Assembly (NCBI GenBank): GCA_035546615.1
Contig: DASZWM010000002.1
Coordinates: 32,001-96,000, forward strand
Length of the DNA: 64,000 bases
Source: Minisyncoccota bacterium
GTDB taxonomy: Bacteria; Patescibacteriota; Minisyncoccia; Phycocordibacterales; SBAW01
Direction of reading: 5' to 3'
Within the stretch, counting starts at the first letter, position 1, and the number at the start of each line of letters is the position of its first letter. This document shows positions 7,766-42,700 of this stretch, in pieces. Position numbers and translations under genes: made by a program. The notes below the pieces were generated by a model. It saw only the letters and a program-made list of their open reading frames with translations. It was not told the origin of the DNA and made no database searches.

Positions 7766-7897
7766 AGGAGAAATCGATCAGGCGTTCAAAAATTGTCGTC
7801 ACAATTTTTGCCGCACGACCCTGCCTCGCTCCCAAGTCTGCTGACTTGGGGCCCGCTCCGGCTTGCGATTCCCGACGAGAAGCACCCCGTGCTTCTC
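7766..7897 (-). repeat. structured repeat family F2, copy A (sense on minus strand, 3' of infB-rbfA)
   Basis: Reading the minus strand: 9-bp hairpin with GGG loop; GGAATCGCAAGCCGGAGCGGGCCCC; 8-bp hairpin; GGGAGCGAGGCAGGGTCGTGCGG; AU-rich hairpin with GACG loop; tail CTGATCGATTTC complementary to the 5' GGAATCG. Confidence 0.65.
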
Positions 7898-15416: not shown

Positions 15417-15553
15417 CGCCGGGGAGGAATCGGTCAGGAATAAAGTGTTCGCCGTCGCGAATACTTTTTCACGACCCTGCCTCGCTCCCGCATCTGGTGA
15501 TGCGGGGCCCGCTCCGGCTTGCGAATCCTCACGCAAGGTATCCCATACCTTGC
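15417..15553 (-). repeat. structured repeat family F2, copy B (immediately 3' of tRNA-Tyr)
   Basis: Same architecture as copies A and C: hairpin gcaaggtat-CCC-ataccttgc (plus-strand text), core GGATTCGCAAGCCGGAGCGGGCCCC...GGGAGCGAGGCAGGGTCGTG, hairpin with GACG loop, tail CCTGACCGATTCC. Confidence 0.65.
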
Positions 15554-37780: not shown

Positions 37781-38446
37781 ATGGAATTTATACAGTCATC
37801 GAATCCGAGCGAGGGCGCCCAGGCTATGGCGCAGAAGATAGTTGAATCTTTGCGGAAGGGAAAAGTGCTGTGGCTGATATGCGGCGGCTCGAACGTGCCG
37901 CTTTCGGCGGAGGCCATGGATGCCGTACGCGCCGCAGTTTCTGCGGATGAATTGCGGAACCTAACGGTCGGCATGACGGATGAGCGGTACGGGCCGCTTG
38001 GGCACGCCGACTCCAACTGGAAGCAGCTTGAGGATGTTGGGTTCAATATAGAAGGAGTCACGGCTATTCCGGTACTTACGGGAAAGCCGCTTGAAGAGAC
38101 TGTTTCGGAATATGCTCAGAAGCTCGAAGATGCGCTGCAAGAAGAACCGCTTGTTATCGCGCAATTCGGCATCGGCGCGGACGGGCATATCGCGGGCATG
38201 CTTCCGCACAGCCCCGCGGTCTCAAGCACGGACACTATATACGCATACGAAGCCGCGCCATTCACGCGCATTACAATAACCCAGCCGGTATTCAAGAAAA
38301 TATCCGTCGCGTATGCGATAGTATTCGGCGAGTCCAAAAAAGCCGCCATCGACCGCCTCAAGAACGAGGACCTTCCGGTTGAGGAAATGCCCTGCCAGTT
38401 GCTTAAGCAAATCCCCGAAGCGTATTTTTATACCGACCAGCTTTAA
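37781..38446 (+). CDS. 6-phosphogluconolactonase-like protein (NagB/Pgl family)
   Basis: LICGGS and GIGADGHIAGMLP motifs of 6PGL/glucosamine-6-P deaminase-fold enzymes. Confidence 0.65.
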   Translation: MEFIQSSNPSEGAQAMAQKIVESLRKGKVLWLICGGSNVPLSAEAMDAVRAAVSADELRNLTVGMTDERYGPLGHADSNWKQLEDVGFNIEGVTAIPVLTGKPLEETVSEYAQKLEDALQEEPLVIAQFGIGADGHIAGMLPHSPAVSSTDTIYAYEAAPFTRITITQPVFKKISVAYAIVFGESKKAAIDRLKNEDLPVEEMPCQLLKQIPEAYFYTDQL

Positions 38447-38819: not shown

Positions 38820-38890
38820 GTGGAAAGGGAAGAGGCGGGGCTGGAAGCGTTTTGTGAAGGAGCCTTAAATTTGCTATCCTCAGATTGTAT

Positions 38891-38961
38891 TGCCCGATCG
38901 TCTAATGGTAGGACAGAGGCCTTTGAAGCCTTTAATTGGGGTTCGAATCCCTGTCGGGCAG
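38891..38961 (+). tRNA. tRNA-Gln(TTG)
   Basis: TGCCCGATCGTCTAATGGTAGGACAGAGGCCTTTGAAGCCTTTAATTGGGGTTCGAATCCCTGTCGGGCAG; U1-A72 pair as in bacterial tRNA-Gln. Confidence 0.8.
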
Positions 38962-38992
38962 CAAATGTAGCGAAGCGTAATTTGCGCCCGAA

Positions 38993-39125
38993 GGAAGCAA
39001 TGGGATTGCTTCCGGCAGGGATTCGAAAGCCGGAGCGGGACCCGCATCAGCAGATGCGGGAGCGAGGCAGGGTCGTGCGGCTAAAGTTGCGACGGCAACT
39101 TTAGAACGCCTGACCGAATCCCTAA
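38993..39125 (+). repeat. structured repeat family F2, copy C (3' of tRNA-Gln)
   Basis: ggaagcaat-GGG-attgcttcc; GGATTCGAAAGCCGGAGCGGGACCC; gcatc-AGCA-gatgc hairpin; GGGAGCGAGGCAGGGTCGTGCGGC; aaagttgc-GACG-gcaacttt; tail CCTGACCGAATCC pairs with the 5' GGATTCG. Confidence 0.65.
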
Positions 39126-39185
39126 GAAGTTTCTAGTTTTCTCTGTCTCTAGGCAGAATCACTTTTTGATGGTAAATCTGTCCTG

Positions 39186-40859
39186 ATGCCGTATTCGACT
39201 GATATGTCAGTGTATTTAGATTTGGGCGGCGCTTTAGCTGCTTTTGGCCTTTTATTTACTGTTTACCAACTTCGGCGACCAAGGTGGGAGGTAATTTTGC
39301 GAATTAGAAATAATTGGCAAAGTGATATTTTCTGGATATTAGGTTTTATAGGTTTGTTTTATGCCCTAGTTGGCGTGCTTGTATCTGAACTCCCAATTAA
39401 TTCTTTCAACTTTCCGTTTAATACCCCATTACTTTACGAGGTGGCAGCGTACCTATCGTTTGTAGCTTCACCTCTGTCATTAATATATTTTGCGACCAAT
39501 GACAAAAAGTTATTTAACGCAAAAACTGCAGAAACTTTCTACGAAGTAATCTTGCAAGAAATTTCTAAATCTAGTGATGTAAACCTAGATGCGGCATTGG
39601 AAATAGTCTTGAGAAACTTTAATGAAATTTGTGATGCAACTCTTCAAAATACAGATAAAGATTTGCGCTCATACGCAAGGTCAATTTTAGACGTTGTACT
39701 AAGTGACGAGTCTGTAGTAAAAGTGCTCACTACCAAGAGGCTTGATGCTTTGCAATATATCTTTTATTTAATAAAGGAAAAGAATATCACTCGTGCTCAT
39801 TCGGGGATAGGTATACCGAGAATTGTAAATAATCTTTTCTTTGACGAAAATTCCTTCCTCTATAAACAACTCGATAGAAAAGGGTTGGCACTTTCATCAA
39901 ATATATACACGAGCATTTTTGAATCTCCAGTTATACTCACCAACTTTGATCTGTTTGGGTACCCGACTATCGGTTATGGAATGAGTAGAGATACTGGCAA
40001 TGCTGGTATAAGAGTATTTATCAAAGCCTTATCTCTAAGCATTGAAACTTACTTTAAAACAGGGAGCGTGCCTCCGAGGCACATTAATAATGGGTTGTCT
40101 TACTTAAGCAATATATTTGGAGGGTTGTGTGCAAAAATTGCCATCAAAGAAAATAAAGGTGTTGATACTAAATCTAGTTTAGAAGATGAGTGGTGGGGCT
40201 TACATCAAATAGCCTCCTTTTTAGGACATGATTATATTTTTCTTGCCTATGAAGAAAAACTAAATCAGCAAGTTCTGGAAAACGAAAAAACTGCCCATGA
40301 GGCTCGATTTGGCTCAAATGCAACTATAAATGAGGGTATTGCAGCTGTTATCTATAAAGCTTTTGAGCAGCTTTCACAAATTAAAAAAACCACAGACATA
40401 TATCATACAGTTCTGGAGCTCTTGCATGGAATGATGAATGAGCCTACCTACAAGGAAGGTTATAGACCGCCTTTTGAAAAGAGACTCTGGCAACAAATCG
40501 GTGCAAATGTTGCTAAACGTTATTATCCTGCCGTCGTTAGAACGTATTTAACCTTTGTTGGGTTCTGTCTTGGCGCAGATGCAAACCAACGACAAGGTTG
40601 GATTGGCGAACAAGCGGAACGTATGAGACGACTTTTGTATATTGACCTTAAGCCTTTATTTGATAAGAATGAAAAAATGATAAATAAGGAATTTATGAAA
40701 GACGTTTTGCTCCCAGATTCCATGTCCTATAAAGATGGTAAATTTACTTATACCTCTGGATTCGGAGAAGGTACAACCACTGAAGTAGCACCACCCCCTG
40801 AGGGTGCGACATCAGGTTTGGAAGGAATAGATTTAGAGAGTATGCCTCACTTCGTCTAG
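39186..40859 (+). CDS. hypothetical membrane protein (AT-rich island gene 1; 557 aa)
   Basis: Three N-terminal TM helices and a large soluble domain with no recognizable family. Codon usage and GC clearly differ from the flanks. Confidence 0.5.
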   Translation: MPYSTDMSVYLDLGGALAAFGLLFTVYQLRRPRWEVILRIRNNWQSDIFWILGFIGLFYALVGVLVSELPINSFNFPFNTPLLYEVAAYLSFVASPLSLIYFATNDKKLFNAKTAETFYEVILQEISKSSDVNLDAALEIVLRNFNEICDATLQNTDKDLRSYARSILDVVLSDESVVKVLTTKRLDALQYIFYLIKEKNITRAHSGIGIPRIVNNLFFDENSFLYKQLDRKGLALSSNIYTSIFESPVILTNFDLFGYPTIGYGMSRDTGNAGIRVFIKALSLSIETYFKTGSVPPRHINNGLSYLSNIFGGLCAKIAIKENKGVDTKSSLEDEWWGLHQIASFLGHDYIFLAYEEKLNQQVLENEKTAHEARFGSNATINEGIAAVIYKAFEQLSQIKKTTDIYHTVLELLHGMMNEPTYKEGYRPPFEKRLWQQIGANVAKRYYPAVVRTYLTFVGFCLGADANQRQGWIGEQAERMRRLLYIDLKPLFDKNEKMINKEFMKDVLLPDSMSYKDGKFTYTSGFGEGTTTEVAPPPEGATSGLEGIDLESMPHFV

Positions 40860-40861
40860 AT

Positions 40862-41419
40862 ATGAATCCAAACATTTGGTTTTACACTTTTAGTACAGCA
40901 GCCCAAGTAATGGCGGCTTTGGCCGGTTTATTTGCAGTATTTGTTGTATATAAGATTCAAGATTTTAGTCAGCTTATAAAAGACGCCCGCTCTAGTCTGT
41001 CCCGGTTGATTCCATACAATTCAGCGAATACGGGCGGAGATACAATCTCTAAGCAGGAAGTATTAGATATGACTGATAGAGAATTGGTTACTACGCTTGC
41101 CGAGTTGTTAGTACTTGAGACATCTCAGAATGGAGCGTTCTTTAGCGGACATTCAGAAACTATAGATGGCACAACGATAGCTGTAAACTCGAATACCTAC
41201 GACTATTTCGCAGCCCTTGTTGATAAAAAGGAAAGAATACTAAAACGTCTGATTTTTGTCTTGGGTTTAAGTTTAGGAACTATTTGTGTTTGTCTAGTAT
41301 CATTGGTGCTAATTGACGTGTTATCAAAGTTTGAGTGGTTTATTTGGATGTGTTTGGCTTTATTTATATACACCCTTTGGACAATCGGAATGGATATTTA
41401 CAAGATAACCCTAGAGTAA
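40862..41419 (+). CDS. hypothetical membrane protein (island gene 2)
   Basis: One N-terminal and two C-terminal TM helices; starts 3 nt after gene 1. Confidence 0.45.
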   Translation: MNPNIWFYTFSTAAQVMAALAGLFAVFVVYKIQDFSQLIKDARSSLSRLIPYNSANTGGDTISKQEVLDMTDRELVTTLAELLVLETSQNGAFFSGHSETIDGTTIAVNSNTYDYFAALVDKKERILKRLIFVLGLSLGTICVCLVSLVLIDVLSKFEWFIWMCLALFIYTLWTIGMDIYKITLE

Positions 41420-41428
41420 TCTTTCTCT

Positions 41429-41752
41429 ATGAAAGGAATAATTATCGAAAATAGTCTCAAAGACAAAAGTATTATCACCGAAGCTGAAATTATTCGAACT
41501 TGGGAAGATGGAAGTTGGAAGTTGCGGGAGGTAAAAGTTTCAACAGAATGGGCTGAAAAATTTGGAGGATACTTAAATGATGGACCCTGGTATGTTCACT
41601 TTTGGGAATCCGACAGCGACGATGTACTAGTAGTATTTAAAGACAAAAGCTTCTGGATCAAACATTCGGACAAGAATACTTGGCAAGATGCTATTGCTCA
41701 TGGAAAGTCGTTACATATACCCGTGGAGCAATTAGACTTTCCTATTGATTGA
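41429..41752 (+). CDS. hypothetical soluble protein (island gene 3, 107 aa)
   Basis: ORF only; AT-rich. Confidence 0.4.
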   Translation: MKGIIIENSLKDKSIITEAEIIRTWEDGSWKLREVKVSTEWAEKFGGYLNDGPWYVHFWESDSDDVLVVFKDKSFWIKHSDKNTWQDAIAHGKSLHIPVEQLDFPID

Positions 41753-41790
41753 GATTTCGATTTCTCCCTTTTATATTATATAATCAAGAT

Positions 41791-42174
41791 ATGAAGTATT
41801 TGCTAATCACGGCTTTATTTTTGGTTGTCTTTGTGTTTGCTACTCCAGCAAAGGCCGCACCATTAACCCAATCCCAAGTAAATGCAATAATTACTATTAT
41901 GCAGTCTTTCGGTGTAGATAGTGCTACGATTTTAAATATCAAAACAACACTCTCTAATTCGACTTCCGCTAAGGTAGAATCCGTCGTCAAAACTACTTTT
42001 AAAGGAGTTCCTACCTACGCACAAGTGAAAAGAGAGTTAGCAAAATCACGCAATAAGGAGGTGACTTATATGGAGAATGGATGTGTATACTCAATAAACC
42101 ATTTAGTGAGTGAACATATTTTCAAAACACGCGATATGAGTATTCGCGATCTTGCATCTGGAGCAAGTTGTTAG
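41791..42174 (+). CDS. hypothetical secreted protein (island gene 4)
   Basis: Signal peptide MKYLLITALFLVVFVFATPAKA. The track start at 41749 would overlap gene 3. Confidence 0.4.
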   Translation: MKYLLITALFLVVFVFATPAKAAPLTQSQVNAIITIMQSFGVDSATILNIKTTLSNSTSAKVESVVKTTFKGVPTYAQVKRELAKSRNKEVTYMENGCVYSINHLVSEHIFKTRDMSIRDLASGASC

Positions 42175-42217
42175 TGCTCCTTGGTGTATAAAGTTTAAAA
42201 ATATAGTTAATCTTCTC

Positions 42218-42700
42218 TTACCCCCGTCGCGCCGCATCAATAGCGGCAACGTCGAGCTTTTTCATCGTCATCATCGCGTCAAACGCGCGTTTTGCCTCAT
42301 CGCCGCCCTTGGCAAGTGCTTCGGTCAGCGTGCGCGGCGTTATTTGCCACGATACTCCCCAGCGGTCCTTGCACCAGCCGCACTCGCTCTCCTGGCCGCC
42401 GTTTCCGACGATGGCATTCCAGTAGCGGTCCGTCTCTTCCTGATCGTCCGTCGCTATCTGGAAGGAAAACGCCTCGCTTTGCTTGAAATACGAGCCGCCG
42501 TTAATGCCCATGCAAGGAATCCCGCAGACCGTGAACTCTACCGAGAGCACGTCGCCTTTCTTGCCCGACGGGAAATCGGCAGGCGCATGGAAGACGCCCG
42601 TTACCTTGCTGTCGGGGAACGTAGCGGCATAGAAATTCGCCGCCCCTTCCGCATCCTTATCAAACCAGAGGCAAATAGTGTTTTTTGGTATCATATACAT
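42218..42700 (-). CDS. VOC superfamily protein (PhnB-like, 3-demethylubiquinone-9 3-methyltransferase domain)
   Basis: CLWFDKDAE...NGG...SFQI...DQEETDRYW...CGWCKDRWGVSWQI pattern. Confidence 0.6.
   Translation of the reverse strand: MYMIPKNTICLWFDKDAEGAANFYAATFPDSKVTGVFHAPADFPSGKKGDVLSVEFTVCGIPCMGINGGSYFKQSEAFSFQIATDDQEETDRYWNAIVGNGGQESECGWCKDRWGVSWQITPRTLTEALAKGGDEAKRAFDAMMTMKKLDVAAIDAARRG

Follow-up and report, generated by a model that had tools for sequence, protein, structure and literature searches.

The subject of this report is an AT-rich block, with the four genes that it contains, lying next to a tRNA-Gln gene on contig DASZWM010000002.1 of a Minisyncoccota bacterium. We analysed it within a 64-kb stretch of this contig (64,000 nucleotides), which is called the window throughout. 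In the public record the genome is a Candidatus Paceibacterota metagenome-assembled genome (MAG), and the four genes, here named A to D (locus tags VHD55_00715 to VHD55_00730), are all annotated as 'hypothetical'. They are plus-strand open reading frames (ORFs) that fill the block in the order A-B-C-D with gaps of 2, 9 and 38 nt, which agrees with the four tightly spaced same-strand genes described in an earlier note on this DNA. The features of the locus are these:

38891 to 38962, plus strand: tRNA-Gln(UUG), the landmark adjoining the foreign block (ARAGORN; Rfam tRNA, 60.7 bits).
39018 to 39123, plus strand: F2, a GC-rich host repeat that trails the tRNA-Gln; the last host-like sequence on the left, outside the island.
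39124 to 42217, no strand: the AT-rich block, taken from its composition as horizontally acquired, 37.6% GC; its edges are the end of the F2 repeat (left) and the stop codon of the VOC gene (right).
39186 to 40859, plus strand: gene A, 557 aa, with N-terminal membrane helices and a large all-helical domain; unannotated family.
40862 to 41419, plus strand: gene B, a 185-aa small membrane protein (HVV14915.1), with 26 homologue clusters.
41429 to 41752, plus strand: gene C, a 107-aa soluble alpha/beta protein (HVV14916.1) of a strongly conserved orphan family.
41791 to 42174, plus strand: gene D, a 127-aa predicted secreted protein (HVV14917.1), a singleton with a signal-peptide-like N-terminus.
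42218 to 42700, minus strand: the right-flank host gene, PF06983 (3-dmu-9_3-mt / VOC superfamily; Pfam E = 3.4e-48), convergent on D, with host-like GC (0.571) and GC at third codon positions (GC3, 0.70).

The earlier note had placed a sharp drop in GC between the tRNA-Gln/F2 element and the VOC gene, and the computed values bear this out: 0.376 for positions 39105 to 42215 versus 0.585 for the remaining window. In 400-nt windows, GC ran at 0.55 to 0.62 until about position 38200, at 0.35 to 0.41 over 39200 to 42200 and at 0.58 over 42200 to 42600. The other 3.1-kb windows that do not overlap the block had a mean GC of 0.587 (standard deviation, sd, 0.024; minimum 0.523), which places the block about 9 sd below them, and nowhere else within the 64 kb does GC stay below 0.47. 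All four genes share this composition (A 0.378, B 0.380, C 0.380 and D 0.378), suggesting a joint arrival on a single piece of DNA from a donor with a GC near 38%. Codon usage also deviates, with a GC3 of 0.32 to 0.37 in all four genes compared to 0.57 to 0.74 in the flanking genes, whose GC is 0.50 to 0.58. Together with the tRNA-Gln at 38891 to 38962, the composition upholds the description of the block as foreign and tRNA-adjacent. Since the F2 repeat is host sequence, the foreign DNA begins near 39124 and ends at the VOC stop codon (42218), and the 160 nt between the end of the tRNA-Gln (38962) and the AT-rich DNA are host sequence that includes this resident repeat. Note that an assembly contig from Logan (L110, run SRR12170516) is 100% identical to window positions 38907 to 42386 and covers both junctions; thus, the junctions are not an artefact of one assembler.

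As the earlier note had it, the genes belong to no recognised family: scans of A to D with Pfam, NCBIfam, PHROGs and PADLOC gave nothing above noise (PADLOC gave no match at E <= 1), and sequence searches against the PDB, with profiles for A and B and with C and D themselves, gave nothing significant. The membrane and secretion features that it had listed for the four proteins were also recovered. Hydropathy and the AlphaFold model agree on N-terminal membrane helices in A, at residues 8-26, 48-66 and, more weakly, 81-104; B has 1+2 transmembrane (TM) segments; C has no hydrophobic segment; and D begins with the signal peptide MKYLLITALFLVVFVFATPAKA.

Gene A, called by NCBI as 551 aa from 39204 (HVV14914.1), belongs to a sizeable family. 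More than 120 clusters have relatives at 48-65% identity, and a profile search brought the family to about 290 clusters or representatives at 50% identity, almost all of them from Patescibacteria. Among the named hosts are Nomura-, Kaiser-, Sacchari-, Magasanikii- and Campbellbacteria, Paceibacterota and two Eremiobacterota, with distant members in Peregrinibacteria and Omnitrophica. The distribution is patchy across deep lineages, and a pattern scan of 185,579 species genomes, which gives a lower bound, found relatives in at least 16. Of 23 dereplicated loci, 21 had an A gene with a lower GC than its distal flanks (mean -0.049, p = 8e-6). No relatives were found in IMG/VR viral contigs, INPHARED phages or PLSDB plasmids. 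Some loci (here given L numbers) carry just fragments of A (L021:7869-8315, L083/L085:8001-8618 and L076:1983-2926); an Eremiobacterota genome has the C-terminal 100 aa of a relative, and the other fragments are N-terminal parts of about 200-320 aa. Fragments in several loci suggest frequent gene decay.

The AlphaFold model of A (pLDDT 86.5, pTM 0.84) has an all-helical fold with a helical-repeat-like domain of roughly 450 residues behind the membrane helices. The first of these, TM1, is highly conserved (GGALAAFGL). The loop at residues 29-45 carries 5 K/R, which by the positive-inside rule makes it cytoplasmic, and by the same rule the bulk of the protein is probably cytoplasmic. Judging by its sequence and predicted fold, A seems to bear no sign of catalysis. 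The invariant 'GHDY' motif raised the idea of an HD-type active site, which was abandoned since relatives have G, T, N or E in place of the Asp. A comparison of the N-terminal TM regions spoke against homology of A and B (hhalign probability 0.3%), and homology of A to the 541-aa gene that abuts the recombinase in L012 was also rejected, this gene being an Eco57I-like methylase. Pfam scans of ten distant A relatives returned nothing, and a literature search on the signature peptides of the family and on restriction-linked membrane proteins of the candidate phyla radiation (CPR) found nothing specific.

What places the block among mobile DNA is the company that relatives of A and B keep in other genomes. 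A is preceded by a tRNA on its own strand, at most about 550 nt away, in the window (tRNA-Gln) and in L010 (tRNA-Gln-UUG), L013 (tRNA-Gln-CUG), L016 (tRNA-Ser), L048 (tRNA-Leu) and L086 (tRNA-Ser), and in L014 a 24-nt copy of a tRNA-Ser 3' end is found 74 nt upstream of A. Of the two flanks of the block, L010 shares only the left one, from dnaX to the tRNA-Gln. At the other end of A, its 3' end is abutted by a convergent gene for a large serine recombinase of about 440 aa (Resolvase + Recombinase + Zn_ribbon_recom) in L001, L010, L013, L014 and L016, with truncated copies in L007 and L012; members of this recombinase family are 52-84% identical to each other. Gene B follows suit: a tRNA-Gln is directly upstream of the B relative in L022/L023, and in L023, where the order is tRNA-Gln, B relative, recombinase, MerR-HsdM, this relative (65% identical) abuts a recombinase of the same family (57% identity). 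The earlier note had supposed that the mobilising element might be decayed, and this idea gains from the finding that relatives of A and B elsewhere adjoin a serine recombinase that is missing from the window.

Several of these loci also share a short motif. GTATCG[AG]..GACC occurs 7 times in the 1.04 Mb of fetched loci (L010:7744, L012:7811, L013:7654, L014:140/1918/1994 and L068:1031), always on the strand of gene A; 6 of the 7 sites are just after a tRNA or 110-350 nt upstream of A, the latter distance being seen in L010, L012 and L013, and the remaining one is 140 nt after A. A longer version, AGTCAGCRCAGTATCGAG..GACC, is common to L010, L013 and L068. In L014 the tRNA-proximal motif (GTATCGGATAGACC and variants) is found three times, bracketing successive cassettes, which suggests accretion at the tRNA. 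The motif is a candidate attachment (att) or recombinase site; it is absent from the window. As a separate observation, the A relative of L003 lies in a low-GC stretch (L003:1407-11700) with three further genes: a GIY-YIG gene, one for a primase-helicase (Prim-Pol/AAA_25) and one for a serine recombinase of 569 aa that overlaps a tRNA-Ser at the 3' end of the tRNA. This stretch looks like a self-replicating integrative element.

Beyond the recombinase come restriction-modification (RM) and other defence genes. These are type I hsdM/S/R in L001 and L014; a ResIII helicase, an N6_N4 methylase, a C5 methylase and a PD-T4-1-like gene in L010; a D12 methylase with HNH in L013; and HNH with an Eco57I-like methylase in L012. 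On the other side, A is immediately preceded on its own strand, at gaps of 4-30 nt in the loci listed here, by a type III Res, itself preceded by Mod, in L017, L019, L033, L046, L055/L101 and L083. In other loci this position is taken by MvaI/BcnI (L076), a MutH-like nuclease (L040), AAA+HNH (L038), an N6_N4 methylase (L049) or, in L001, NucC of a cyclic-oligonucleotide-based anti-phage signalling system (CBASS), with its cyclase before it. Genes for SoFic, NERD and AbiEii are also near A in some loci. In L101 (548-10800), the Mod-Res-A operon stands beside an AbiEii toxin-antitoxin-like pair and a DUF7695 gene, and the same region holds the signature of a diversity-generating retroelement (a bAvd-like gene with an RVT_1 reverse transcriptase).

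An unselected tally covered 52 further dereplicated loci, taking the two closest ORFs to the left and to the right of A (147 proteins). Its leading Pfam families were N6_N4_Mtase (7), HNH (6), ResIII (5), EcoRI_methylase (4), Resolvase/Recombinase (4) and GmrSD_N (4), followed by RE_TdeIII (2), Eco57I (2) and D12 (2), plus Tsp45I, MvaI_BcnI and MrcB_N; methyltransferases were the top PADLOC matches. At least 27 of the 147 neighbours are RM components, far above an assumed genome-wide share of roughly 1%. Recurrent defence flanks across unrelated genomes were found for A only, while a single locus (L023) supports B.

Genes B, C and D have histories of their own. In B, residues 1-33 (NIWFYTFSTAAQVMAALVGLFAVFVVYKIQDF, window 40862-40960) are near-invariant over 24 relatives and the remaining protein is 30-50% identical, and such a constrained N-terminal membrane segment is an uncommon feature. 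Gene C has more than 128 homologue clusters; its relatives are stand-alone genes in varied, mostly ordinary neighbourhoods with no recurrent defence flank. Gene D (127 aa if counted from its ATG, 141 aa with an upstream TTG as the start) stands alone when clustered at 90% identity, and no relative of it was present in any fetched locus. PF06983/VOC-superfamily genes flank A in the window (42218-42700), in L040 (3518-4504) and in L053 (33-404), and a Glyoxalase-family gene directly follows the B relative in L026/L027 (L026:6550-6990); these may reflect chance or weak linkage.

The earlier note had taken the four genes for one system or cassette, and here the comparison decided against it. We examined 94 loci encoding an A relative (16 loci from species-representative genomes, 73 from metagenomes and the rest obtained by exact look-up), and none (0/94) had a relative of B, C or D. 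The A-B-C-D order was thus absent from these loci, and the fetched B and C loci lacked the other three genes. The nearest sampled relatives also differ in identity (A 65%, B 89%, C 81%), and B relatives have other partners. A to D are therefore independent cargo, not a conserved cassette or a co-evolving system. The suggestion of a toxin/immunity module did not hold either, as we found no recognisable toxin, polymorphic-toxin, immunity or known defence domain in A to D. The further suggestion of a defence island fared unevenly: for gene A the neighbourhood (RM, CBASS, SoFic, AbiE) speaks for it, while the search for a defence domain or a PADLOC match in the block came back empty.

The F2 repeat borders the block on the left. 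The window has three copies of it, about 110-130 nt long and directly downstream of a tRNA, each in the orientation of its tRNA: after the tRNA-Gln, the tRNA-Cys (7778-7873, minus strand) and the tRNA-Tyr (15470-15528 and flanks, minus strand). They share the conserved core AAGCCGGAGCGGG...GGGAGCGAGGCAGGGTCGTG, and they fit a consensus fold of 47 pairs, of which 19 carry compensatory double changes. In the closing helix, the reverse complement of a T-arm segment of the upstream tRNA pairs with a sense copy of this segment; in the tRNA-Tyr copy of F2, the sense copy is identical over 15 nt to the 3' end of the tRNA. F2 has no Rfam match and has the look of a tRNA-linked structured RNA or a miniature element that is as yet undescribed. 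A 94-aa ORF that spans the tRNA-Gln and this repeat (38820-39104, plus strand) is almost certainly not a real gene, as it runs across an RNA gene and a structured repeat.

The repeat also accounts for the apparent att candidates. The only candidate for a direct repeat of the tRNA 3' end, the 9-mer CGAATCCCT (39115-39123), forms the 3' strand of the F2 closing helix, so it belongs to the host repeat and is not an att scar. An inverted copy of the tRNA 3' end at 39012-39027 was rejected on the same ground, and an 11/14 match in the 3' end of the VOC gene was judged to be chance. This leaves no convincing direct repeat of the tRNA-Gln 3' end around the block. Since serine recombinases require little att identity, the missing att repeats are weak evidence.

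We propose, with a probability of roughly 0.6, that the block is the recombinase-less remnant of a tRNA-targeted defence island at a tRNA-Gln hot spot, and that A is a candidate membrane-anchored anti-phage or restriction-accessory protein. The islet would have been acquired horizontally and have lodged at the tRNA-Gln integration hot spot beyond the resident tRNA-trailing repeat. An intact island would run from the tRNA through a cargo gene reading away from it and the convergent large serine recombinase of about 440 aa to RM or other defence genes, and such tRNA-targeted islands are common in Patescibacteria. Because A and B fill the same slot elsewhere and the window holds no recombinase or restriction genes, a truncated remnant is the simplest reading. 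The four genes would be unrelated cargo, with B as another small membrane protein suited to this slot and C and D presumably orphan passengers.

How A might act can be proposed with low confidence, from its neighbourhood. The conserved N-terminal helices would anchor it in the membrane, and its large helical-repeat domain, probably cytoplasmic, could serve as a binding or sensing scaffold. A may be a stand-alone anti-phage effector, causing abortive infection via membrane damage or exclusion at the membrane; alternatively, it may be an accessory to restriction systems. That A recurs after unrelated nuclease types points to a generic, modular role rather than a specific enzymatic partnership. 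A bolder version of this idea, which we regard as rather doubtful, makes A a new, largely Patescibacteria-specific membrane-anchored helical-repeat family that pairs with type I, II and III systems, HNH nucleases and CBASS NucC as a common second-line module. In such a module A would be either an abortive-infection effector that fires upon restriction evasion, or a tether that places restriction at the membrane site of DNA entry in ultra-small cells that scavenge DNA.

Several observations weigh against the proposal of a defence-island remnant. As the earlier note had also reported, neither an integrase nor a direct repeat of the tRNA 3' end was found in the window; no recombinase is encoded anywhere in it, no remnant of one was detected there with eight recombinases as tblastn queries (no match at E < 0.1), and the whole 64 kb has no methylase, Res or recognisable defence gene. 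The case for a remnant is thus a comparative one, built on other genomes. A search for exact matches to the flanking VOC protein gave no record, and no empty site was found in a close relative. A is a candidate defence gene through guilt by association, by gene neighbourhood only: it had no match in Pfam, PADLOC, PHROG or PDB, and fold searches with its model returned generic helical-repeat matches and no specific relative. Roughly half of the A loci with flanks have no recognisable defence neighbour. Since CPR genomes are tightly packed, gaps of 4-10 nt to restriction genes are no proof of co-function. Finally, A and the recombinase show no significant co-divergence (overall rho 0.39, p = 0.15), and between L010 and L013 the recombinases are 84% identical and the A proteins only 52%, so A is exchangeable cargo and not a fixed partner of the enzyme.

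Other explanations of the block were weighed against these data. That A to D form one co-functional, horizontally transferred system for defence, abortive infection or toxin/immunity is suggested by their tight same-strand spacing, their identical composition and their make-up of two membrane proteins and one secreted one. Set against this are the empty count among the 94 A loci, the other partners of B, the stand-alone C relatives in unrelated contexts, the unequal identities of the nearest relatives, and the lack of any toxin, immunity or defence domain; the four-gene system is largely refuted and we consider it very improbable. Scarcely credible is an assembly chimera or a contaminant on the Paceibacterota contig. 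For a MAG, the jump in GC, about 21 points, is unusually abrupt, but the independent Logan contig crosses both junctions without a difference, the block sits downstream of tRNA-Gln, a type of site that hosts A and B relatives in other Patescibacteria, and the named close relatives of A, B and C are all Paceibacterota or Parcubacteria.

Two other explanations leave the island in place and change the role of its genes. Gene A could serve the mobile element itself, in maintenance, exclusion of competitors or transfer, with the restriction genes as fellow cargo. In support of this, at least 7 loci have A and the recombinase side by side, A lies at the edge of the island nearest the tRNA, and in the L003 region it accompanies a Prim-Pol/AAA_25 gene and the 569-aa serine recombinase. 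However, A also occurs without a recombinase, as the third gene after a type III Mod-Res, it does not co-diverge with the recombinase, and it has no relative in viral contigs, phage records or plasmids; this role is unlikely. That the islet instead encodes surface or host-interaction proteins for an episymbiotic lifestyle, its proximity to defence genes merely reflecting shared integration hot spots, would suit the fact that three of the four products are membrane or secreted proteins, the diverse cargo borne by accessory islands at tRNA sites, and the A loci, about half, that lack a recognisable defence neighbour. We hold it to be quite unlikely, since most of A probably lies in the cytoplasm by the positive-inside rule, A is repeatedly found directly after nuclease genes of several unrelated types, and restriction-related families lead the unselected tally of neighbours.

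Compared with known systems, the defence-island remnant resembles tRNA-adjacent genomic islands and integrative elements in its foreign composition, its position just downstream of a tRNA, its patchy cargo and the site-specific recombinase of its relatives. It differs in that the relatives carry a large serine recombinase, not the tyrosine integrase that is the classic enzyme of tRNA islands, and carry it behind the first cargo gene and not at the island edge; in addition, the window copy lacks two classic hallmarks, the recombinase and the att repeats. In one study, small serine recombinases are markers of anti-phage systems and defence islands (PMC13552941). The islands seen here are alike in the genetic linkage of a serine recombinase to varied defence systems, in this case type I, II and III RM, CBASS and SoFic. 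They are unlike in that the recombinase family seen here is large (about 440 aa), belongs to Patescibacteria and has no member in the window. The Mod-Res adjacency of a type III RM operon with an accessory gene is likewise not seen in the window; A relatives show it in six sets of loci.

As for individual genes, PrrC and RloC are restriction-linked abortive-infection genes, and A resembles them as an extra gene in or appended to RM operons (after Mod-Res, MvaI, MutH-like or HNH genes). Unlike them, A has no ATPase or nuclease signature and has N-terminal membrane helices, and it is known from its sequence, predicted fold and context. Single-gene membrane-anchored abortive-infection (Abi) or exclusion proteins exist as a class, with which A shares N-terminal TM helices, a variable cytoplasmic domain, a mobile-island location and low GC; it departs from them in having no PADLOC or PHROG Abi match and in its helical-repeat-like fold, which is without a known counterpart. 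Gene A has no sequence or fold similarity to any solved protein. Of these comparisons the closest are recombinase-marked defence islands and restriction-linked abortive-infection genes such as PrrC, and A has neither sequence nor fold in common with either.

Seen as an island, the block is nothing new in kind: it is an ordinary decayed one, and the message for the window is modest, namely that A to D should not be annotated as one system. The family of gene A is a modestly interesting lead. The defence repertoires of Patescibacteria (CPR) are poorly charted because the standard catalogues derive from cultivated phyla, and here an orphan family of about 290 clusters is linked, at tRNA hot spots, to a single lineage of serine recombinases as well as to restriction, CBASS and Fic genes. 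This makes the A family a concrete, testable candidate for a defence or restriction-accessory gene, and the architecture of the islands (tRNA, cargo, convergent large serine recombinase, restriction genes) could be used as bait in CPR genomes.

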